A DNA stretch of 64,000 nucleotides from Bacteroidales bacterium (GTDB taxonomy: Bacteria; Bacteroidota; Bacteroidia; Bacteroidales; UBA10428). The position numbers were made by a program, and so were the translations under genes. This document shows positions 50,892 through 60,774 of this stretch, one piece after another. The stretch spans positions 10,568 to 74,567 of the forward strand of contig DATGXG010000026.1 of assembly GCA_035299085.1 (NCBI GenBank), written 5' to 3'. Below the pieces are notes generated by a model. The model did not search any database, was not told the origin of the DNA, and saw only the letters and a program-made list of their open reading frames with translations. Position 1 is the stretch's first letter, and every line of letters starts with the position of its first letter.

Positions 50892-52139
50892 GTGGATATA
50901 TTTGACAAGATTAAAAAGAGCAGAGGCCCACTGGGACAATATCAGCAGGTCGCACACGGATATTTTATGTTTCCGAAGCTTGAAGGTGAAATCGGACCGA
51001 GGATGAGGTTCAGGGGAAAAGAGCTTTTGAACTGGAGTCTCAATAATTATCTCGGGCTGGCTAACATGCCTGAGGTAAGAAAAGCCGATGCTGACGCAGC
51101 TAAAGAATACGGTATGGCTGCTCCGATGGGTGCAAGGATGATGTCGGGACAGACAACCAAACATGAGGAACTTGAGAATCAGCTTGCTGAGTTTGTAGGC
51201 AAGGAAGATGCATTTCTGTTAAACTACGGTTACCAGGGCATGATGTCTATCATTGATTCCGTCCTGGGAAGAAACGATGTGGTGGTTTATGATTCCGAGG
51301 CACATGCCTGCATCGTCGATGGTTTAAGGTTGCATATGGGTAAACGTTTTGTTTATCCGCATAATAATATGGAAAAGCTGGAGAAGGAGCTCGAAAGAGC
51401 TACCAAGCTGGCTACTGAAACAGGCGGTGGAATCCTTGTAATCACTGAAGGTGTGTTTGGTATGGCAGGTGACCTGGGTAATCTGAAGGCAGTGGCCGAC
51501 CTGAAGAAAAAATTTGAATTCCGTATACTTGTTGATGATGCTCATGGTTTCGGAACTATGGGTAAAACGGGTGCCGGAACAGGTGAACATTTCGGCGTTC
51601 AGGATGAGATTGATCTCTATTTCAGTACGTTTGCCAAATCAATGGCCGGAATCGGCGCTTTCATAGCCGGTAAAGAAGATGTGATCAACTACCTGCGTTA
51701 TAACATGCGTTCACAGACATTTGCAAAATCACTGCCTATGCCTATGGTTATCGGTGCTTTGAAACGTCTTGAACTCATTAAAACACGCCCCGAGATCCGT
51801 GAAAAATTGTGGACTGTTGTAAACGCCCTTCAGTCGGGTTTCCGTGCAAAAGGCCTGAACCTTGGCAACACCGAATCCCCTGTAACACCTGTTTTTTTAT
51901 CAGGTACCGTTGCTGAAGCGACTAACGTGGTTATCGATCTTCGTGAGAATTACAAGATCTTCTGTTCAATGGTTGTATATCCTGTAGTTCCCAAGGATAC
52001 CATTATGCTCAGAATTATACCCACAGCTGCTCATACACTCGAAGATGTGGAGTACACTGTAAATGCATTTGCAGAAATCCAGGAAAAGCTGAAAGCCGGA
52101 CAGTTTAAGTCCGACAGGATTGCTTCCCTTCTCGGATAA
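50892..52139 (+). CDS. Alpha-oxoamine synthase family PLP enzyme (Kbl/BioF/serine-palmitoyltransferase-like)
   Basis: Proposed GTG start gives MDIFDKIKKSRGPLGQYQQVAHGYFMFPKLEG. LNNYLGLANMPEV, DDAHGFG and PLP-lysine context FSTFAKSMAG. The substrate (glycine, serine, cysteate or alanine) cannot be decided from sequence alone. Confidence 0.85.
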   Translation: MDIFDKIKKSRGPLGQYQQVAHGYFMFPKLEGEIGPRMRFRGKELLNWSLNNYLGLANMPEVRKADADAAKEYGMAAPMGARMMSGQTTKHEELENQLAEFVGKEDAFLLNYGYQGMMSIIDSVLGRNDVVVYDSEAHACIVDGLRLHMGKRFVYPHNNMEKLEKELERATKLATETGGGILVITEGVFGMAGDLGNLKAVADLKKKFEFRILVDDAHGFGTMGKTGAGTGEHFGVQDEIDLYFSTFAKSMAGIGAFIAGKEDVINYLRYNMRSQTFAKSLPMPMVIGALKRLELIKTRPEIREKLWTVVNALQSGFRAKGLNLGNTESPVTPVFLSGTVAEATNVVIDLRENYKIFCSMVVYPVVPKDTIMLRIIPTAAHTLEDVEYTVNAFAEIQEKLKAGQFKSDRIASLLG

Positions 52140-52146
52140 TCATCAT

Positions 52147-52176
52147 AAAAAAAGGCGCCTGAGGCGCCTTTTTTAT
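52147..52176. terminator. Bidirectional rho-independent terminator
   Basis: AAAAAAAGGCGCC-TGA-GGCGCCTTTTTTAT. An 8-bp stem (52152..52159 / 52163..52170) flanked by an A-run and a T-run, between convergent genes. Confidence 0.75.
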
Positions 52177-52179
52177 TTA

Positions 52180-52791
52180 TTACTTTTCGTTTTGGGCGGC
52201 GTGCCGCGATTTAATGCCAAGATAACCTCCATGATGCCTTTTGGCATAATCGGCTGCTGTAAACCCGATCTTCTTCATCATGAGTACTACCAGTGCGTCG
52301 CCAATGACGGTCATCACAGTGGTTGAAGTGGTGGGTGTGAGGCCGAGAGGACAAACTTCGGCGGGGTGACCGGTGGATATGGTTACGTCGGCAAGATGTC
52401 CGAGTTCACTGTCGGCATTACCTGTGATGACAATAGTATGCATGTTGTAACCCAGCCTTTTCGCCAATTCATATAATTCAAGAATTTCAAGAGTTTTTCC
52501 TGAATTCGATACAAGCAAAAGGATATCATTCGGCTGAATTACGCCAAGGTCACCGTGTTGTGCATCGGCAGGGTGCAGAAAAATGGCCGGGGTTCCGGTA
52601 GCTGATAAGGTAGTGGCGATGTTAAGGGCAATCTGACCGGCTTTTCCCATACCGCTGGCCACTACTTTTCCACCCTTACCATGAACACTTTCAAAGATAA
52701 GATCACAGGCCTTTTCAAAATTTTCGGTGGCTGGGATATTAAGAACGGCTTTTGCCTCTGCTTCAAGAATCTTCTTTACTTCGCTGCTCAT
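52180..52791 (-). CDS. SIS-domain sugar-phosphate isomerase, KpsF/KdsD-like but lacking CBS domains (probable arabinose-5-phosphate isomerase)
   Basis: 203 aa from MSSEVKKILEAEA. GKVVASGMGKAGQIA, LLLVSNSGKT and C-terminal HHGGYLG (the HPGGxLG-like motif that follows the SIS domain in KpsF/KdsD). No CBS pair follows. Confidence 0.7.
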   Translation of the reverse strand: MSSEVKKILEAEAKAVLNIPATENFEKACDLIFESVHGKGGKVVASGMGKAGQIALNIATTLSATGTPAIFLHPADAQHGDLGVIQPNDILLLVSNSGKTLEILELYELAKRLGYNMHTIVITGNADSELGHLADVTISTGHPAEVCPLGLTPTTSTTVMTVIGDALVVLMMKKIGFTAADYAKRHHGGYLGIKSRHAAQNEK

Positions 52792-52809
52792 TGTAGAAAT
52801 TTGAAGGGA

Positions 52810-52817
52810 CAAATATA
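52810..52817 (-). promoter_or_regulatory. Candidate -7 box (TATATTTG on the minus strand) upstream of the SIS gene
   Basis: Exact TAnnTTTG match 19 nt upstream of the ATG at 52791. It overlaps the TTG start used by the ORF track. Confidence 0.3.
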
Positions 52818-52827
52818 GTAAAAGCGC

Positions 52828-53080
52828 ACGTCATTGCGAGTAAGAACACCTTTTTAAAGATCACCCGGTGAAATGACAACATATTTACACAGAGGTTCAC
52901 AGAGGCACCACAGAGGTTCACAGAGAAAAAATCTGTTTTCTCAGTGGTTCTCTGTGTCTTCTCAGTGGTTCTCTGTGTAATAATGGTGAGGAAAAACAAA
53001 TCGTCATTAGTAGGAGCATGACTGAAATATGGATTTAGTATTGCTTCGCCTCCGCAAGAACCCGTGGCTCGCAATGACGT
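52828..53080. repeat. Inverted-repeat-bounded element G (253 nt): termini ACGTCATTGCGAG / CTCGCAATGACGT enclosing CACAGAG / CTCTGTG arrays
   Basis: Seen directly. 13-nt perfect terminal inverted repeats at 52828..52840 and 53068..53080. Inside, 4 x CACAGAG (52888..52924) face 2 x CTCAGTGGTTCTCTGTG (52940..52977). ATTGCTTCGCC at 53040..53050 resembles a motif in element H. Confidence 0.75.
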
Positions 53081-53085
53081 TCCCA

Positions 53086-55092
53086 TTATGTTATGGTTCT
53101 GTGCAAATGATAATCCATCTTTTTCAGCAGAAGTTCTTTATGGATGGGTTTTGAAACATAATCATCACAACCCGCGGCGAGGCATTTGGCCTTATCTTCA
53201 GACATTGCGTAGGCTGTCTGTGCAATTATGGGCACTGTAATTTTTTGCTCGCGGATCTTTTTAGTTGCGTCAAGGCCGCTCATTATCGGAAGCCGGATAT
53301 CCATAATGATAATTCCCGGTTTATTATTTATCGCCTTTTCAACTGCTTCTTCTCCATTTATGGCACGGTCAATTTCCATACCTGTTGCTGAAAGAACTTC
53401 CTGCAGGAATGCATAGTTCATATCGTCATCTTCAACAACAAGTACAGTTTTACCTTCAAATTGCATAATATCTTCTTTATTTATAAAGTTATCTTTTTCC
53501 TTAACCTTGTTCCTGATATGTTTCCGAGGAATTGAGAAATTAAACCTGGATCCCTTGCCCGGTTCACTTTCAACCCGGATTGTGCCTCCCATCAGTTTCA
53601 GAAGTCCCCTGCAAATCGACAGGCCAAGGCCCGTTCCTCCATAAATCCTGGATCCGGATTGCTGAATCTGCCGGAAAGGTTTAAAAATCGTTTCAATCTG
53701 TGATTCCGGAATTCCGATGCCGGAATCCTCCACAAAAAATTCAATCATTCCATTCTTGTCCCCGGCATGGAAACCAAAACGGATATGACCTTCCTCAGTA
53801 AATTTCAGGGCATTGTTCAGCAGGTTCATTAAAATCTGTCGCAACCGGTTTTCATCGGTAGTTATAACGGTGTCGAAGAACTGCGGATTGTAATCTTTAT
53901 AAAGAAGGACCGAATTTTTCCCCATCCTTTCACATTCTTTCAGGTACATAATGTAAAGGTCTTCAATTACCCGGGCAATCCGGCAATCTCTTTCGTTCAG
54001 AAGCATCTGGCCCGCCTCAATTTTTGAAATGTCTACAAGGTCATCAATTATATGAAGAAGCTGGTCATTGCATTTATTAATGACTTCAACGTAACTGTTA
54101 AAAGTAGGGTTTTCAGGCACTTCTCGAGTAAGTAGTTCTGAGAAACCGATAATTCCGTTCATGGGAGTTCGAATCTCATGGGATAAATTGGCGAGAAAAG
54201 CCGATTTCAGTCTGTCACTCTCCTGGGCCTTTTCTTTGGCAGATCTCAGTTCGGATTCAATTTCTTTCTGAAATGTTATATCGCTGGCAATCCCCACAAC
54301 ACGACGGATTTCACCGGATGAAACCGGAACCGGGAAAAGCCGCACCCAAAGCCAATGCACAGTTCCCTTGACATCGGTGACACGTATTTGCCTGCTGACG
54401 GGATCAGAAGAACGGTAATCGGCTTTAATAAGATCATAATAAATATGAAGGTCATCCGTGTGGATGATATTGGCTACCTCCTCAATGTGGTTATAAAACC
54501 TGCCAATATCATATCCGAATTTATCTTCAAGGGCATTATTGATATACAAAAGTTTCCGGCCTTCAGTGAGCCAGAAAATGTCATCAATGTTTTCTGCCAG
54601 TTGCCTGAACCTTAATTCGCTTTCCCTGAGTTGGGCTCTTGCCCTTATGATTTCATCAATATCCCGGGTAACAGACAATATATAATCTTCACCATTTAAA
54701 GACAGGATGGAGGCTGACATTAAAGCTGTTTTTATGGTACCATTTTTCAGCATAAAACGGGCTTCGAGGTTAAAAACCTTCCCGTTTTCCTGAAGGGCTT
54801 TTACCAGTTTTTTCCGATCCTCCTGATCATACCAGATATTAATGTCTTTGGAAGTTTTGCCTTCAACATCCTTCCAGGTGTATCCCGTGATGTGCGTAAA
54901 CCCTTCGTTGATATCAATAAACAGCCCGTCAGAGAGGCGGTTGATATTTATTGAATCGGGGCTGATTTTAAATGCAACCCTGAATTTTTCCTCACTCTCC
55001 CGCAAAAGCTCATATGTTTTCTGAAGCTTTAAGTCCTGTTTATGCAGCAACTGATTAAGATCCTGCACAGATATTTCTTCTTGTTTAGGCAT
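53086..55092 (-). CDS. Hybrid sensor histidine kinase (PAS-PAS-HisKA-HATPase-REC), cytoplasmic
   Basis: 668 aa. Two PAS-like regions, H-box [21 protein letters not shown], HATPase ([25 protein letters not shown]), and a C-terminal receiver ([26 protein letters not shown]). Confidence 0.9.
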
Positions 55093-55220
55093 GTAAGGCT
55101 TAGGTAATATTTCGCGAAAAAGAAGCGGTTTAATGCAATAAATTTAACATATTAGGTAAATAAATAAACAAAATTTAACTTTTTTCATTTTCCGTCACCA
55201 AAAGATGAAATTAATTCAAA

Positions 55221-55333
55221 TGGGGTACAAAACTCAAAAACGATAAAAACTATAATTTATACCCCAATAAAAAAGGGGTGATAATTTAAATTATATAATA
55301 AATAATAAAATATATCCTCAAAATATTGGGGTA
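55221..55333. promoter_or_regulatory. Three copies of TGGGGTA (two direct, one inverted) in the AT-rich leader of the porin-glnB-amtB operon
   Basis: Seen directly. TGGGGTA at 55221..55227 and 55327..55333, and TACCCCA at 55260..55266. TATACCCCAATA (55258..55269) is the exact reverse complement of TATTGGGGTATA (55325..55336). Confidence 0.3.
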
Positions 55334-55348
55334 TATTAAATATTTAAT

Positions 55349-55356
55349 TATTTTTG
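55349..55356 (+). promoter_or_regulatory. Candidate -7 box TATTTTTG upstream of the porin-glnB-amtB operon
   Basis: Exact TAnnTTTG match 28 nt before the ATG at 55384. Confidence 0.3.
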
Positions 55357-55383
55357 TCCCAAGAAAAACCAAAAACAACAGTC

Positions 55384-56061
55384 ATGAAAAAAGTACTACA
55401 AACTTCAGGTCTCGTTTCCCTAGTTCTAATTGTCTTTGCTATGAATGTGCAGGGACAGGAAACGGAAAGCAAAGCCGCTTTTGATGTGAAAATGGATATC
55501 TACAGTAATTATATCTGGAGAGGGTCAAAATTGGGAACCGGACCATCTCTTCAGCCAAGCGTAACTTTTACTGCCGGTGGCCTCACTCTGGGCGTTTGGG
55601 GTGCTTTTGATGCAAGTGGATATACAGAGGCAGATCCTTATATTTCCTATGCATTTCCTTTTGGTTTAAGTCTGGGTGTAACGGATTATTATTATCCCTC
55701 ATTAAAATTATCTGATTTTTCTGATTCTACTGGAAGTCATGCAATAGAGTTGAATGCCGGATTTACCACAGGTGGTTTATCACTTAGTGCCAATTACATT
55801 GTAAATGAAGCCGGAGGTGCGGCTTCGAAGGGCCAGGATATGTATTTCCAGGCAGGATATGCGTTTAAAAACTTTTCAGTCAGTGTGGGTGCCGGAGACG
55901 GTTGGCATACTACAAATGGGGATTTCAACGTATGCCATATCGGTATCGGCACTTCAAAAGAAATTAAAATCACCGATACCTTCAGTATACCGGTAAGCGG
56001 GCAGGTCATTGTGAATCCTGAGAAAGAAGCACTATATGTTGTCGTAGGGCTGTCACTTTGA
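55384..56061 (+). CDS. Small outer-membrane beta-barrel (TorF-like putative porin) preceding glnB-amtB
   Basis: 225 aa from MKKVLQTSGLVSLVLIVFAMNVQGQ (signal peptide). SNYIWRGSKLG...PSLQPSVTF and alternating beta-strands. The family name is from memory of similar genes upstream of amt operons. Confidence 0.5.
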   Translation: MKKVLQTSGLVSLVLIVFAMNVQGQETESKAAFDVKMDIYSNYIWRGSKLGTGPSLQPSVTFTAGGLTLGVWGAFDASGYTEADPYISYAFPFGLSLGVTDYYYPSLKLSDFSDSTGSHAIELNAGFTTGGLSLSANYIVNEAGGAASKGQDMYFQAGYAFKNFSVSVGAGDGWHTTNGDFNVCHIGIGTSKEIKITDTFSIPVSGQVIVNPEKEALYVVVGLSL

Positions 56062-56085
56062 TAAATCATCAAAACACCAATATAT

Positions 56086-56451
56086 ATGAAAAAAATCGAG
56101 GCAATAATCAGAACATCTAAGTTCGAAGAAGTTAAAACCGAACTTAAAAAAATCGGTATTGATTTCTTTTCGTACTGGGATGCTTCCGGTGTGGGTAATG
56201 AGCTGACCCGTGGTCACCATACCTACCGCGGAACGGTTTATGATACACAGTATATTCCCAGGATTTTTATATCCTTAGTCCTTCGTGATGTGAATGTTCA
56301 GAAAACGATCGATTGCATCCAGAAAGCTGCATTTACGGGTGAAGTTGGTGACGGCATGATTTTCAGTTACAATATTGAGGAATCTGTCAGAATCAGCAAC
56401 GGTGCCAGGGGTGAAGCATCCACTGCAGGACCGGGAGACTCATTACTTTAA
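56086..56451 (+). CDS. P-II family nitrogen regulatory protein (divergent)
   Basis: 121 aa. MKKIEAIIRTSKFEEVK, a T-loop-like TYRGTVY, and B-loop TGEVGDGMIF. Immediately upstream of amtB. Confidence 0.8.
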   Translation: MKKIEAIIRTSKFEEVKTELKKIGIDFFSYWDASGVGNELTRGHHTYRGTVYDTQYIPRIFISLVLRDVNVQKTIDCIQKAAFTGEVGDGMIFSYNIEESVRISNGARGEASTAGPGDSLL

Positions 56452-56475
56452 ATTCATAACGAAAAAATCATAGCC

Positions 56476-58023
56476 ATGAAAAAGAATTTGCTATTTCTAA
56501 TTATAGCGCTGGTACTGACATTAGGAGTTTCGGTGTTTACCAGCGCGCAGGAGCCTGTACCTGATCCTTCAGGCGTATCAACGGGAACCGCAAATGATGT
56601 ACCTGCAGCTACAGCAGGTAGTCCGACACTTGAAGAAGTGGCCGCTCAGGCCGGTCATAATAAGGTTGCCATCAATATGATGTGGGTCCTGATCACCGGT
56701 TTCCTTGTTATGTTTATGCAGGCAGGTTTTGCCATGGTTGAGGCTGGCCTTACCCGTGCAAAAAATGCTGCACATACGATGGCCATGAACTTCCTGATTT
56801 ATCCGTTAGGTATGATTGGATTCTTCCTAACCGGTTTTGCATTCATGTTCGGAGGGGTTGGAAGTCTTGGTACCCTTGGAGGGTTTGGAGGACTGAGTCA
56901 TGAGATTTCGATCCACCTGTTTGGAAAAACTTTTGATATAATCGGTTTTAAGGGTTTCGGGCTCGCCGGGGTATATGATGTGAGCGTGTTTGCCCTGTTC
57001 CTTTTCCAGATGGTGTTTATGGATACCACGGCCACAATACCTACCGGATCAATGGCTGAACGCTGGAAATACCTAGCATTTTTCATATACGGCATATTCG
57101 TTGGTTCTGTTATTTACCCGATATATGGAAACTGGGTATGGGGAGGTGGCTGGTTAGCCGACCTCGGTACAAATTTTGGACTCGGGCACGGACATGTTGA
57201 TTTTGCCGGCTCATCGGTTGTTCATATGACGGGTGGTGTGCTGGCCGTTGTGGGAGCAGCAATGATCGGGCCGCGTCTTGGAAAGTACAATAAAGACGGA
57301 TCAGCTAACGCTATCCCGGGTCATAACATCCCTATGGCTATTATCGGAACCTTTATCCTCGCATTCGGATGGTTCGGATTTAACCCGGGTTCAACGCTTG
57401 CAGGCGGCGATCTTAGAATTTCAGTTGTTGCCGTCAATACAATGATCGCCTCAGCAACAGGCGCAATTGCCTCTACTTTATACATGTGGATTTTCAAAAC
57501 CAAAAAGCCCGATCCCACCATGATGCTTAACGGTATGCTTGCCGGACTTGTGGCAATTACAGCACCATGCGGATTTGTTTCGGTAGGCAGTGCCGCACTA
57601 ATAGGGGTAATTTCAGGTGTGCTTGTTATTGAAGCCGCCTTCTTTATTGAAAGAAAACTTAAAATTGATGACCCTGTCGGTGCAATCGCCGTTCATGGTA
57701 TTAACGGTGCCTGGGGATGCCTTGCACTCGGTTTGTTTGCCGACGGAACATATGGTGATGGCTGGAATGGTGTTGCCGGCAAGGTTACCGGACTCTTTTA
57801 TGGTGACGGAGGTCAGTTTGTGGCTCAGCTGATCGGAGTAGCTACCAATATTATCTATGTAGGTGCAATTGGATGGGTAATGTTTAAACTTATTGATTTA
57901 ACAGTTGGCTTAAGGGTCGATCCCAAGATTGAGCTTGAAGGAGTTGATCTCGAAGAAATGGGTGTTGAAGGTTATTCGGGGGTTAAAATGGATAAAAATG
58001 TAGAAACACCACTTTCACGTTAG
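56476..58023 (+). CDS. amtB: Ammonium transporter (Amt family)
   Basis: 515 aa. Signal or TM N-terminus, QAGFAMVEAG, FAGSSVVHMTGG, and 11 or more TM helices. Confidence 0.92.
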   Translation: MKKNLLFLIIALVLTLGVSVFTSAQEPVPDPSGVSTGTANDVPAATAGSPTLEEVAAQAGHNKVAINMMWVLITGFLVMFMQAGFAMVEAGLTRAKNAAHTMAMNFLIYPLGMIGFFLTGFAFMFGGVGSLGTLGGFGGLSHEISIHLFGKTFDIIGFKGFGLAGVYDVSVFALFLFQMVFMDTTATIPTGSMAERWKYLAFFIYGIFVGSVIYPIYGNWVWGGGWLADLGTNFGLGHGHVDFAGSSVVHMTGGVLAVVGAAMIGPRLGKYNKDGSANAIPGHNIPMAIIGTFILAFGWFGFNPGSTLAGGDLRISVVAVNTMIASATGAIASTLYMWIFKTKKPDPTMMLNGMLAGLVAITAPCGFVSVGSAALIGVISGVLVIEAAFFIERKLKIDDPVGAIAVHGINGAWGCLALGLFADGTYGDGWNGVAGKVTGLFYGDGGQFVAQLIGVATNIIYVGAIGWVMFKLIDLTVGLRVDPKIELEGVDLEEMGVEGYSGVKMDKNVETPLSR

Positions 58024-58046
58024 GCCATATAAATAATCCTTTCATG

Positions 58047-58083
58047 AAAAATCCCCGGGAGATGGCCGGGGATTTTCTTTTTT
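58047..58083. terminator. Bidirectional rho-independent terminator
   Basis: AAAATCCCCGG-GAGATGG-CCGGGGATTTT. An 11-bp stem followed by CTTTTTTT, and preceded by an A-run that serves the opposite strand. Lies between convergent amtB and trpB2. Confidence 0.8.
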
Positions 58084-58101
58084 AACCGTGTAGGTAAAGC
58101 A

Positions 58102-59475
58102 TCAGGAAGGTTTCGGATAATTTTCCAGTTCCTTCAGGTTTCCGAATAATTCTGTATCCGACATTTCATGCTTCACCAGTTTACCTGTAAGGTATTTATC
58201 ATAACCAACAAGGTCCATTAAACCGTGACCGCTGAGATTGAACACAATTACCTTTTCTTTGCCTTCTTCTTTTGCTTTTTTAGCTTCCCTTATTGCACCT
58301 GCAATGGCATGAGTGGTTTCAGGTGCCGGAATTATGCCTTCGCTCCTTGTAAACAGGATACCGGCCTCATAACACTCAACCTGGTCAATGGCTACCGGGT
58401 TAATGAGCTTATCGTTCAGGGCTGCCGAAACAAGGGGACTCATACCATGGTAACGGAGTCCGCCCGCATGGATAGGCTCAGGGATGAAGTTATGTCCCAG
58501 CGTATACATAGGCAGCAACGGAGTCATTTTGGCTGTATCGCCGAAATCATAAAGGAAAGGCCCGCGGGTGAGGGTAGGGCATGAACTGGGCTCTACCGGG
58601 ATGATTTCAATCTGATCACCATGAAGCTTATCATAAATAAACGGAAATGATATACCTGCAAAATTACTTCCGCCGCCGGCACAGGCAATTACCACATCAG
58701 GTTTCTTTTCACCGAATTTGACAAGTTGTTTTTTCACTTCAAGACCAATGATAGTCTGGTGAAGCATTACATGATTCAATACGCTTCCCAGGCTATAGCG
58801 GGTCTGGCCGGTAGGATCCGTTACAGCAGCTTCAACGGCTTCACTTATTGCAATGCCAAGACTGCCGGGCGTGTCAGGATACTTCGCGAGAATATCGCGT
58901 CCTGCCTGGGTTTCCAGGCTGGGACTGGCAATGCAGGTTGCCCCGTAGGCATTCATAAGCAGTTTGCGGAAAGGTTTTTGGTCGAAACTGATGCGAACCA
59001 TGAAAACCTTGCATTCGAGACCTATTAAAGCACAGGCCTGCGAAAGGGCACTTCCCCATTGACCCGCGCCGGTTTCAGTTGTGAGCTTTTTAATTCCGAA
59101 TTGTTTGTTGTACCATGCCTGGGCAATGGCTGTGTTCAGTTTGTGACTTCCGGCAGGTGAAACGCTTTCGTTTTTATAATAGATCCTTGCCGGTGTTTTC
59201 AAAGCTGCTTCAAGCTCATATGCCCTGACAAGCGGTGTAGGCCTGTATAAAGCCAGCATATTGAGCACTTCTTCCGGGATATCAATCCACCGCTGCGTAC
59301 TTACTTCCTGCTCAATAAGATTCATAGGAAATACCGGCGCCAGCATATCGGGTGAAACCGGTTTTCCGTCAGGTCCCAGTGGCGGAAGCATTGGAGTGGG
59401 AAGATCGGGAGCCAGGTTATACCATTGAGTGGGCATTTCGGATGCCTCAAGGAATACTTTCTTAATTCGTGCCAT
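58102..59475 (-). CDS. TrpB2-type tryptophan synthase beta-like PLP enzyme (stand-alone)
   Basis: 457 aa (long TrpB2 form). PLP-lysine context [14 protein letters not shown], and GGGSNFAG. Confidence 0.85.
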
Positions 59476-59594
59476 GAGTTACTTGTTTATCGTTTAGAGT
59501 TTGACGTTGACGTCTGACTAAAATTTGAAAGGCACTAAATTAATGGTTTATCCCTAATTTACATAAAATTGCAGCGAAAGTTTATAAAGATTCT

Positions 59595-59812
59595 ACGTCA
59601 TTGCGAGGAGCTTGAATCACAATGATTATAGTACCAATTAATCGCGACGAAGCAATTTGCCCGCACTGGCAGAACTCTGCAAAAAGAAACAGGTGTAAAA
59701 TGTTACTTTGGAATCTGTGCTCTTTGAAGCGCCCTTCCTGTTCTGGTAGATTGCTTCGTCGACTTTTAATACTGCTATAATCAATTATAAATCAAGCTCC
59801 TCGCAATGACGT
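59595..59812. repeat. Inverted-repeat-bounded element H (218 nt): 21-nt perfect termini ACGTCATTGCGAGGAGCTTGA / TCAAGCTCCTCGCAATGACGT with nested internal inverted repeats
   Basis: Seen directly. Termini at 59595..59615 and 59792..59812. Nested pairs are TGATTATAG (left) and CTATAATCA (right), and CGACGAAGCAAT (59645..59656) with ATTGCTTCGTCG (59750..59761). It shares its first and last 13 nt with element G. Confidence 0.8.
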
Positions 59813-59817
59813 TTCCC

Positions 59818-60774
59818 TTAAATCGCCAAATGACTCAAATACCTTTCCGCCTCAATGGCTGCCTGGCAACCAGAACCTGCAGCGGTAACGGCCTGGCGAT
59901 ACACCTTGTCCTGTACATCCCCGCAGGCAAACACTCCTGGCACATATGTTTTTGGTGTACCCGGTATGGTTTTGATATAACCGGTTTCATCGGTTTCAAT
60001 ATACTGCTTGAATACTTCAGAATTGGGAGTATGACCAATGGCAAGGAAAAACCCGTCAATTTTTATTACTTCTTCCATTTCATCCACCTCTCCCTGGCGT
60101 TTTATGAGGACAACTTCCTGTACTACATCAGTGCCCCGTATTTCCTTTGTATTCCTTTCAAAAAGAACTTCAATATTCGGTGCGTTTTCAACCCGCATCT
60201 GCATGATTTTCGATGCTCTCAGAAAATTCTTCCTGACAATCAGATATACTTTCTTACACAAACCCGCCAGGTAAAGGGCTTCTTCGCATGCTGTATCACC
60301 TCCGCCTACGACGGCAACGTCCTTGCCCCTGTAGAAAAAACCGTCGCACGTGGCACATGCTGAAACACCCGATCCTTTATATTTATCCTCCGATTCAAGT
60401 CCCAGGTATTTTGCTGTGGCTCCCGTTGCAATGATTACCGTATCGGCTTCGAGCATGGTTTTATCATCAACGACAACTTTGTGCGGCGTTTTTGAAAAAT
60501 CAACAGCTGTCACAATGCCCCACCGGATGTCTGTACCAAAACGGGCGGCCTGTTCATCAAGGTCATCCATGAGTTTTGGACCTGTAATCCCTTTCGGATA
60601 TCCCGGAAAGTTTTCCACATCGGTTGTTGTTGTTAACTGTCCGCCCGGCTCAAGTCCCTTGTAAAGTACAGGATGCAAATTGGCCCGTGCTGCATAAATG
60701 GCAGCCGTGTAACCTGCCGGCCCCGATCCGACAATCAGGCATTTTACATGTTCAGAAGGTGTCAGGTTATTCAT
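59818..60774 (-). CDS. trxB: Thioredoxin-disulfide reductase
   Basis: 318 aa from MNNLTPSEHVKCLIVGSGPAGYTAAIYAARA. Redox-active CATCDG. The ORF-track N-terminal extension (to 60912) has no homology-like features. Confidence 0.9.
   Translation of the reverse strand: MNNLTPSEHVKCLIVGSGPAGYTAAIYAARANLHPVLYKGLEPGGQLTTTTDVENFPGYPKGITGPKLMDDLDEQAARFGTDIRWGIVTAVDFSKTPHKVVVDDKTMLEADTVIIATGATAKYLGLESEDKYKGSGVSACATCDGFFYRGKDVAVVGGGDTACEEALYLAGLCKKVYLIVRKNFLRASKIMQMRVENAPNIEVLFERNTKEIRGTDVVQEVVLIKRQGEVDEMEEVIKIDGFFLAIGHTPNSEVFKQYIETDETGYIKTIPGTPKTYVPGVFACGDVQDKVYRQAVTAAGSGCQAAIEAERYLSHLAI

Follow-up and report, generated by a model that had tools for sequence, protein, structure and literature searches.

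A probable decayed mosaic of two classes of nuclease-associated repeat between a kinase gene and an SIS-domain gene of an uncultured Bacteroidales bacterium

Introduction

Palindromic repeats with a CGTC tag have been described in two lines of work. In the 2013 survey of CGTC-tagged repetitive extragenic palindromic (REP) sequences by Di Nocera, De Gregorio and Rocco (PMC3733652), no dedicated enzyme was found for these repeats, whose stems measure 8-9 bp and whose loops measure 4-5 nt, odd loops being noted for Bradyrhizobium CGTC-1. More recently, a Neisseria repeat of the form CGTCATTCCCGCG...GCGGGAATC was reported as the target of SsnA, a 94-aa single-domain GIY-YIG nuclease of N. meningitidis (Chenal et al., Nat Commun 2025; PMC11893778). 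Binding by SsnA requires the repeat to be single-stranded DNA, and cleavage occurs a few bases 5' of the repeat with its CGTC tag. Inverted copies of motifs of this kind flank ssnA genes across bacteria, Ssn proteins are single-domain GIY-YIG proteins of about 94-150 aa, and the Neisseria repeats NTS and dRS3 are classed as Ssn-related motifs (SRM) (PMC11893778). Here, we analyze element G, located at positions 52828-53080 of a 64,000-nt stretch of DNA (hereafter the window) from an uncultured Bacteroidales bacterium (assembly GCA_035299085.1, contig DATGXG010000026.1, positions 10,568 to 74,567 of the forward strand), where it lies between the genes for a hybrid kinase and an SIS-domain protein.

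Element G was first noticed in a reading of the sequence (the original prediction) that described a segment with inverted termini and facing heptamer arrays, and proposed for it a miniature inverted-repeat transposable element (MITE), a terminator resembling REPs or bacterial interspersed mosaic elements (BIMEs), or an invertible segment. On the basis of the analysis below, we consider it probable that G is a decayed non-autonomous mosaic of two classes of nuclease-associated repeat. Elements of this kind are already known from the 2013 and 2025 papers; the family described here is a variant motif class that has paired miniatures and a nested second repeat.

Results

A family of CGTC-headed hairpin repeats

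The 13-nt sequence ACGTCATTGCGAG is present at both ends of G (52828-52840, plus strand; 53068-53080, minus strand), and the perfect inverted termini of the original prediction are thereby borne out. Two further copies at 59595 and 59812 belong to element H, and none was found elsewhere in the window (four matches compared with 0.02 expected by chance). When the whole genome was searched (5.26 Mb, 67 contigs, 42% G+C), the core head CGTCATTGCGA was found in 274 copies, arranged as 82 convergent inverted pairs and 110 single heads. The heads of a pair mostly lie about 200 nt apart, and most pairs are 170-230 nt long. All 274 heads start with CGTC and the base before it varies, so the true element boundary is at CGTC. 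It had been suggested earlier that G and H are two copies of one family with different interiors; the single family and the different interiors were confirmed, whereas the number of copies was greatly underestimated.

The order of parts within a unit is CGTC, ATTGC, GA, either a variable 6-bp stem-loop or a loop of about 35 nt, GAA, GCAAT and C. Its stem has two parts, of 5 and 6 bp, with a 2 x 3 internal loop between them, and is closed by a loop of 7 nt (74 heads, short-arm type) or by an insert of about 35 nt (168 heads, long-arm type), with the other 32 heads belonging to neither type. In a typical pair, H included, the left arm consists of CGTCATTGCGAGGAGC, about 34 nt with TGATTATAG, and GCGACGAAGCAATCTGCCnGnACAGGnA, and is followed by a variable centre and the mirror image of the left arm; the short-arm type has a small stem-loop in place of the 34-nt stretch.

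The repeat unit is a hairpin under constraint. Among 33 distinct short-arm units, the outer ATTGC/GCAAT stem was invariant, and the inner stem showed compensatory double changes in four of its six pairs, with 99.2% of cells paired. The covariation score was 0.308 compared with 0.072 after shuffling (none of 500 shuffles reached 0.308) and did not exceed 0.05 when the partners were slid against each other. No extra likeness could be observed between the 34-nt loops in the two arms of one element, whose identity (0.625) was similar to that of loops from different elements (0.637). Thus, the arms are independent units rather than one co-evolving long stem. Pairing between the variable arm loops of one element was rejected on the same grounds, and it follows that the whole-element hairpin is not maintained in the loop regions.

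GIY-YIG nuclease genes inside complete elements

Two single-domain GIY-YIG genes, each encoding 97 aa and 88% identical to each other, were found at C39:33242-33532 and C39:37437-37724. PF01541 covers residues 5-77 of these proteins (E = 5e-15) and no second domain was found. Both genes occupy the centre of complete long-arm elements (loci C39:33087-34142 and C39:37282-37927), and GIY-YIG nuclease genes are the only genes found inside full elements. At the first of these loci, a 129-aa open reading frame (ORF), YraN/UPF0102-like by sequence reading alone, follows and has two more right-arm units closing it off in turn.

A full cassette of 545 nt with the GIY-YIG gene in its centre was used as reference for aligning the 82 pairs. 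Its first 80 nt or so were covered by 73-77 of the pairs and its last 85 nt or so by 59-77, and no pair aligned to the nuclease gene except the second cassette itself. As the ends align and the gene is absent, the H-type pairs (about 75 of the 82) are gene-less miniatures of this cassette.

The association between gene and repeat extends beyond this genome. In the same genus, the five closest homologues of the nuclease (at least 60% identical) and a 53%-identical homologue in the relative G003 have the same heads on either side, or else compensatory variants of these (ATTAC..GTAAT, ATTCC..GGAAT and ATTTC..GAAAT), the flanking heads of the homologue in the relative G009 being direct, not inverted. 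We also examined 80 loci in other phyla that encode relatives of the nuclease (51-67% identical). YGTCAT facing inward on both sides was present at 50 of these loci, compared with 3 for a control motif. Wherever the two heads were inverted and had 10 nt or more in common (35 pairs), they read (C/T)GTCATTGCGA(G), and TGTC variants of the head also flank homologous genes. The 16-mer head itself is widespread, occurring in Bradyrhizobium, other Alphaproteobacteria, Chlorobi, Ignavibacteriota, Chloroflexi and others, where its usual form is CGTCATTGCGAGGAGCGAAGCGACGAAGCAATCC in inverted dimers. When 120 head-bearing loci picked at random from other phyla were searched by tblastn with the nuclease, no match was found, which is expected for dispersed repeats.

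Y8, Y19 and E66 are invariant in the 97-aa family, and their spacing is identical to that of the catalytic Y6, Y17 and E64 of SsnA (PMC11893778). The best match among solved structures was the UPF0213 protein 1zg2 (E = 6e-5), and NCBIfam has no specific model for the protein. A literature search by sequence gave nothing but unrelated primers.

Comparison with known repeat systems

The family resembles the Ssn system in several ways. A small single-domain GIY-YIG protein, of 97 aa here and 94 aa in SsnA, is encoded by a gene that lies between inverted hairpin repeats; these begin with CGTCAT, and their palindrome is directly followed by a conserved C. There are hundreds of gene-less copies between genes, and the Tyr/Tyr/Glu spacing is that of the catalytic residues of SsnA. 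On the other hand, the motif here is ATTGCGAG...GAAGCAAT; it has an internal loop together with an inner stem that covaries or a loop of about 35 nt, and the majority of copies are paired miniatures in which each unit also retains about 25-40 nt of the cassette. We regard the family as working like an Ssn/repeat pair with a variant motif class, and do not call it a proven member.

The features of CGTC-tagged REPs were also found: an unpaired CGTC/TGTC tag, a palindromic stem that starts with AT, a short tail, high copy number, an arrangement mostly as inverted dimers, and an intergenic location within about 20 nt of gene 3' ends that is rare between divergent genes. As in the 2013 survey (PMC3733652), their abundance varies in a patchy way from one related strain to another, and several phyla, Bacteroidetes among them, have the repeats. 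The two differ in the hairpin, with a stem of 5 + 6 bp and a loop of 7 nt or a large insert here, and in the enzyme, since full copies contain a GIY-YIG gene here, as in the 2025 Ssn paper. Inverted REP doublets that are non-autonomous and tied to a nuclease-type gene flanked by the same repeats are also known from REP doublets forming hairpins and REP-associated tyrosine transposases (REPIN/RAYT), in which the gene is single-copy. However, the gene of that system encodes a Y1 (HUH) transposase and not a GIY-YIG protein, and its tag is GTAG and not CGTC. Finally, the combination of REPs with other intergenic repeat modules recalls the mosaics known as BIMEs and Neisseria intergenic mosaic elements (NIMEs).

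Anatomy of element G

Compared with H (59596-59811), which is an intact 216-nt gene-less miniature with two long arms that form one long hairpin, G is a decayed composite and not a normal pair: it consists of one bare head, an insert, an internal deletion and one degenerate unit. Its left terminus (52828-52840, plus strand) is the REP head CGTCATTGCGAG preceded by A, and the 3' half GAAGCAATC is missing on this side. Directly after this head comes an insert, designated X, whose left module TAAGAACACCTTTTTAAAGATCACCCGGTGAAATGACAAC (52841-52880, plus strand) is followed by a hairpin of heptamers. The left arm of this hairpin (52888-52925, plus strand) contains four CACAGAG heptamers at 10/11-nt spacing, the loop AAAAAATCTGTTTT (52926-52939) separates the two arms, and the right arm (52940-52977, plus strand) reads CTCAGTG, CTCTGTG, CTCAGTG and CTCTGTG, an imperfect reverse complement of the left arm. 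The facing arrays claimed previously are thus present, with CTCAGTG and CTCTGTG each occurring twice on the right. As a whole, the inverted repeat of the array has 53-nt arms that are 72% complementary. The right module of X (52978-53013, plus strand) ends in a variant head, CGTCATTAGTAG (53002-53013).

After the insert, all that is left is GAGC followed by 22 nt from the start of a long-arm loop, ATGACTGAAATATGGATTTAGT (53014-53039, plus strand; family consensus TGATTATAG), and the remaining arm and the whole centre are deleted. This deletion was read from comparison with the intact form of the composite at C2:96556-96933, in which the same insert is followed by a complete element. The right terminus of G (53040-53080, minus strand) is a short-arm REP unit, CGTCATTGCGAG-CCACGG-GTTCTTG-CGGAGG-CGAAGCAAT, with ATTGCTTCG at 53040-53048. 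Its inner stem is degenerate (CCACGG against CGGAGG), and the conserved C/CTGCC tail has become ACTAAA at the deletion junction. The predicted fold of G (-85.9 kcal/mol, z = -5.1) has a 13-bp outer stem that closes a branched interior dominated by the array hairpin, whereas H is predicted to form a single long hairpin of about 110 bp (-97.3 kcal/mol, z = -10.4).

Insert X and the CACAGAG hairpin

The 40-nt left module of X was identified at about 20 loci in the genome, always directly after a 12-mer that resembles the REP head and always joined to one of three different payloads. The CGTCATTAGTAGGAGC-type sequence has 13 genuine copies (15 matches at no more than two mismatches, of which two were spurious), and X sequence precedes every one of them. 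The bodies of X are 94% identical to each other and the adjoining arm loops only 59% identical, which equals the background level. This makes X a young insert, which entered or recombined into a variety of old units, each time at the same position. The third payload is a repeat of about 300 nt that has no gene; it was considered as a possible autonomous element and rejected, as it is merely another gene-less repeat.

Arrays of at least three CACAGAG heptamers occur at 13 loci in the genome, some of which have no CGTC heads, and similar 4 + 4 arrays are present elsewhere in the order, in genera and families without the CGTC repeat. In G003, a PF13366 gene (GxxExxY, PD-(D/E)XK) lies between an arm of three CTCTGNG and an arm of four CACAGAG. 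It was also observed that the CACAGAG hairpins of G003 form head-to-tail clusters of at least five units with a period of about 100 nt (C19:242000-242600 and C10:333900-335050), unlike those of the genome studied here, where they are single.

For heptamer-array hairpins at GxxExxY or four-helix-bundle genes, the nearest printed analogues are the cyanobacterial short tandemly repeated repetitive (STRR) sequences and the intervening sequences of 23S ribosomal RNA. In this genome, all nine PF13366 or PF05635 (four-helix-bundle) genes whose flanks were examined lie between inverted tandem arrays, each with a word of its own of about 7-8 nt that differs from one gene copy to the next (for example, C39:41913-42230, C59:5026-5340 and C25:14849-15163; further loci are C45:198721-199041, C52:3567-3917 and C39:19121-19471). 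The CACAGAG word was found at none of these nine genes. Since it brackets a PF13366 gene in G003 and no such gene here, the interior of G is an orphan, gene-less hairpin of a second repeat class. With its 4 + 4 heptamers, 10/11-nt phase and inverted arms, it resembles the array cassettes, but it differs from them in having no gene and in being part of a conserved carrier module lodged in a REP head.

A side observation concerns other heptamer arrays (CTGGATA/CTGGATG, GGTTTGA, GGAGTAG and others), which often fill a gap of 20-40 nt between a stop codon and CGTC (for example, at C33:67593, C24:149533 and C23:10692). The two repeat systems are thus frequently juxtaposed.

Placement of the repeats relative to genes

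Of the spacers that contain the 82 pairs, 45 lie between genes of the same direction, 29 between convergent genes and 5 between divergent genes, and one pair is intragenic. Compared with the background of 2729 same-direction, 563 convergent and 554 divergent spacers, pairs were enriched between convergent genes and depleted between divergent genes. Ten single heads are located inside genes. For 144 of 272 heads (53%), a long ORF reading towards the head stops no more than 40 nt away; the distance from stop codon to head peaks at 5-9 nt (62 heads), with a mode of 6-7 nt and a median of 11 nt. Were the nuclease to act as in Neisseria, a few bases 5' of CGTC, its cleavage site would be located immediately beyond the stop codon. 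No consensus could be observed among the bases between stop codon and head. The GGGAA flank, which had been listed together with the termini as common to G and H, was therefore rejected as a feature of the family and is coincidental, whereas the termini and the family membership hold.

Element G follows this pattern. The kinase gene upstream of it (53086-55092, minus strand) encodes a hybrid PAS-HisKA-HATPase-receiver protein, and its stop codon (53086-53088) is 5 nt from the 13-mer and 6 nt from the CGTC core, in agreement with the original prediction. Downstream lies the gene for the SIS-domain protein (52180-52817, minus strand; ATG at 52789-52791), whose -7 box TATATTTG (52810-52817, minus strand) is 10 nt from the left terminus of G, also much as described. 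An ATG-initiated ORF of 107 codons spans all of G (52763-53086, minus strand) and has no family match in Pfam; it is almost certainly spurious, an artefact of the repeat. Further downstream, the spacer between two convergent genes, those for an alpha-oxoamine synthase and the SIS protein, has an A-run, a GGCGCC hairpin and a T-run (52148-52210) that look like an ordinary bidirectional intrinsic terminator. A search of Rfam at a permissive threshold over 52000-60500 found no match on G or H, and gave only weak sub-threshold matches to small RNAs at about 52148-52210.

History of the site in related genomes

The kinase-SIS arrangement is kept in six species of the same genus, where the spacers, about 45-150 nt long, are free of heads and of CACAGAG arrays. 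Empty sites of the kind that the original prediction proposed to look for do therefore exist. The simplest reading is that G was gained in this lineage between the kinase stop and the SIS promoter. The exact insertion junction is unreadable, because identity to the nearest relatives in the flanking SIS gene is only about 72-75%. A metagenome search for strain variants with a 30-nt flank returned no match.

Counts of the 12-mer head varied from 0 to 139 in 18 species of the genus, compared with 220 in this genome and with 0-1 for a reversed-motif control. The original prediction had contrasted a mobile or invertible element with conserved intergenic DNA present in only two copies. The large number of heads, the empty site in relatives and the patchy abundance all speak for a proliferating element.

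Discussion

The evidence from anatomy, copy number and relatives bears differently on the explanations that may be given for G. One of them is that G is a selected structured element of the REP/BIME type, in DNA or RNA, which terminates or insulates transcription between the kinase and SIS genes or stabilizes the kinase messenger RNA. Heads do lie near stop codons, and the spacers of convergent and of same-direction genes are enriched in pairs, as is known for REPs (PMC3733652). In addition, G folds well, and the outer flank of about half of all heads is A-rich, which read from the other strand would put a short U run after the hairpin. However, the site works without G in the six relatives, a simple scan for intrinsic terminators gave no match, G is a damaged copy, and the arm loops of the family do not co-vary. 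We therefore regard such a selected function as unlikely. The REP-like part of the earlier proposal of a REP/BIME-like structured terminator survives, given the CGTC-tagged REP hairpins at the termini, whereas the terminator part gained no support from the scan. A role for G as a long terminator is possible.

The other two proposals concern mobility, and both are less likely still. If G were a classical MITE, it would have arisen by deletion from an insertion sequence, and its movement would depend on a DDE or Y1 transposase that recognizes the 13-nt terminal inverted repeats. The terminal inverted repeats, the many copies with conserved ends and heterogeneous interiors, and the presence of six Y1 (IS200-like) genes in the genome could be taken in its favor. 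Yet none of the six genes is flanked by a head or shares sequence with G or X, and Y1/IS200-like transposases were rejected as the mobilizing enzyme for this reason. Moreover, no target-site duplications were found, and the full elements contain no known transposase. A classical MITE is thus very improbable, even though the family does comprise non-autonomous, gene-less miniatures, as the MITE-like proposal implied. For an invertible segment, a switch bounded by the 13-nt inverted repeats, the perfect termini are the sole argument, and the same termini and geometry are seen in 81 other pairs. There is no promoter box inside G (the absence of TAnnTTTG, noted earlier, was confirmed), and its interior is nearly palindromic, so inversion would change little. 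No recombinase gene was noticed among the neighboring ORFs examined, although no search aimed at recombinases was made. We give this proposal almost no credence.

The explanation that we prefer, a decayed mosaic of two nuclease-associated repeats, would account for G as follows. The outer frame is what is left of two CGTC-tagged REP hairpin units that formed an inverted pair. Their heads are, or once were, putative recognition sites for the Ssn-like nucleases encoded at C39:33242 and C39:37437, and the family probably multiplied through, or alongside, these two nucleases. The younger module X would then have been placed directly after the left head, bringing with it the phased CACAGAG/CTCTGTG hairpin, which is of the arm-array type that brackets GxxExxY (PF13366) nuclease genes. 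Subsequently, an internal deletion would have removed the centre and half of the left unit. Because one bare head and one degenerate unit remain, G is probably inert, and its local effect may be little beyond a stable hairpin at the 3' end of the kinase gene. Our best reading is thus of a relic whose heads were once targets of Ssn-like nucleases, with a possible role of the hairpin at the 3' end of the kinase transcript.

It should be noted that several observations weigh against this explanation. The published SRM string, HGTCWYN(0-2)YYVSBRHN(0-5)WNVSBRGN(0-2)RNCYNB, matches the Neisseria NTS but none of the 274 heads, so that the family is at best a different motif class. Binding and cutting of the heads by the 97-aa proteins is suggested by a paper on distant homologues, and these proteins are candidate members of the Ssn family (CDD cd10448), linked to SsnA indirectly by the Tyr-Tyr-Glu spacing. 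Within the genus, a close homologue of the nuclease was present in four of seven repeat-rich and in one of eleven repeat-poor genomes, which is a modest association (one-sided Fisher p about 0.05). With regard to the mode of spread, direct repeats of at least 4 nt that would mark target-site duplications numbered 0 compared with 0.46 expected, and movement was not seen directly among relatives as distant as those available. Finally, X may either have truly inserted or have arrived by recombination.

For the annotation of these genomes, two warnings follow: the 107-codon ORF across G should not be taken for a gene, and intergenic 'palindromes' are mosaics of at least two repeat systems. G itself, as a broken copy, is of little matter and low interest; the family is of moderate interest. 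A widespread CGTC repeat that had no dedicated enzyme in the 2013 survey now has a specific small nuclease gene linked to it; its head, CGTCATTGCGAG...GAAGCAATC, ranges from Bradyrhizobium to Bacteroidales; and the common paired form is a gene-less miniature of the nuclease cassette. By analogy with SsnA, the cassette and its heads may be a natural enzyme/target pair outside the published definition of the Ssn motif, and thus a candidate for a new single-strand-specific cutting specificity. More tentatively, and with considerable doubt, we suggest that the CGTC repeats of the ATTGCGAG type, together with the genes for the 97-aa GIY-YIG proteins, may be a separate branch of Ssn-like elements, pan-bacterial in extent, that the published motif search missed. 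The nuclease cassette would then be a true selfish element shedding MITE-like paired miniatures, and its hairpin heads would be specific landing pads for a second parasite, module X with its GxxExxY-type heptamer hairpins. If this is true, G would record nested parasitism between two nuclease-linked repeat systems.

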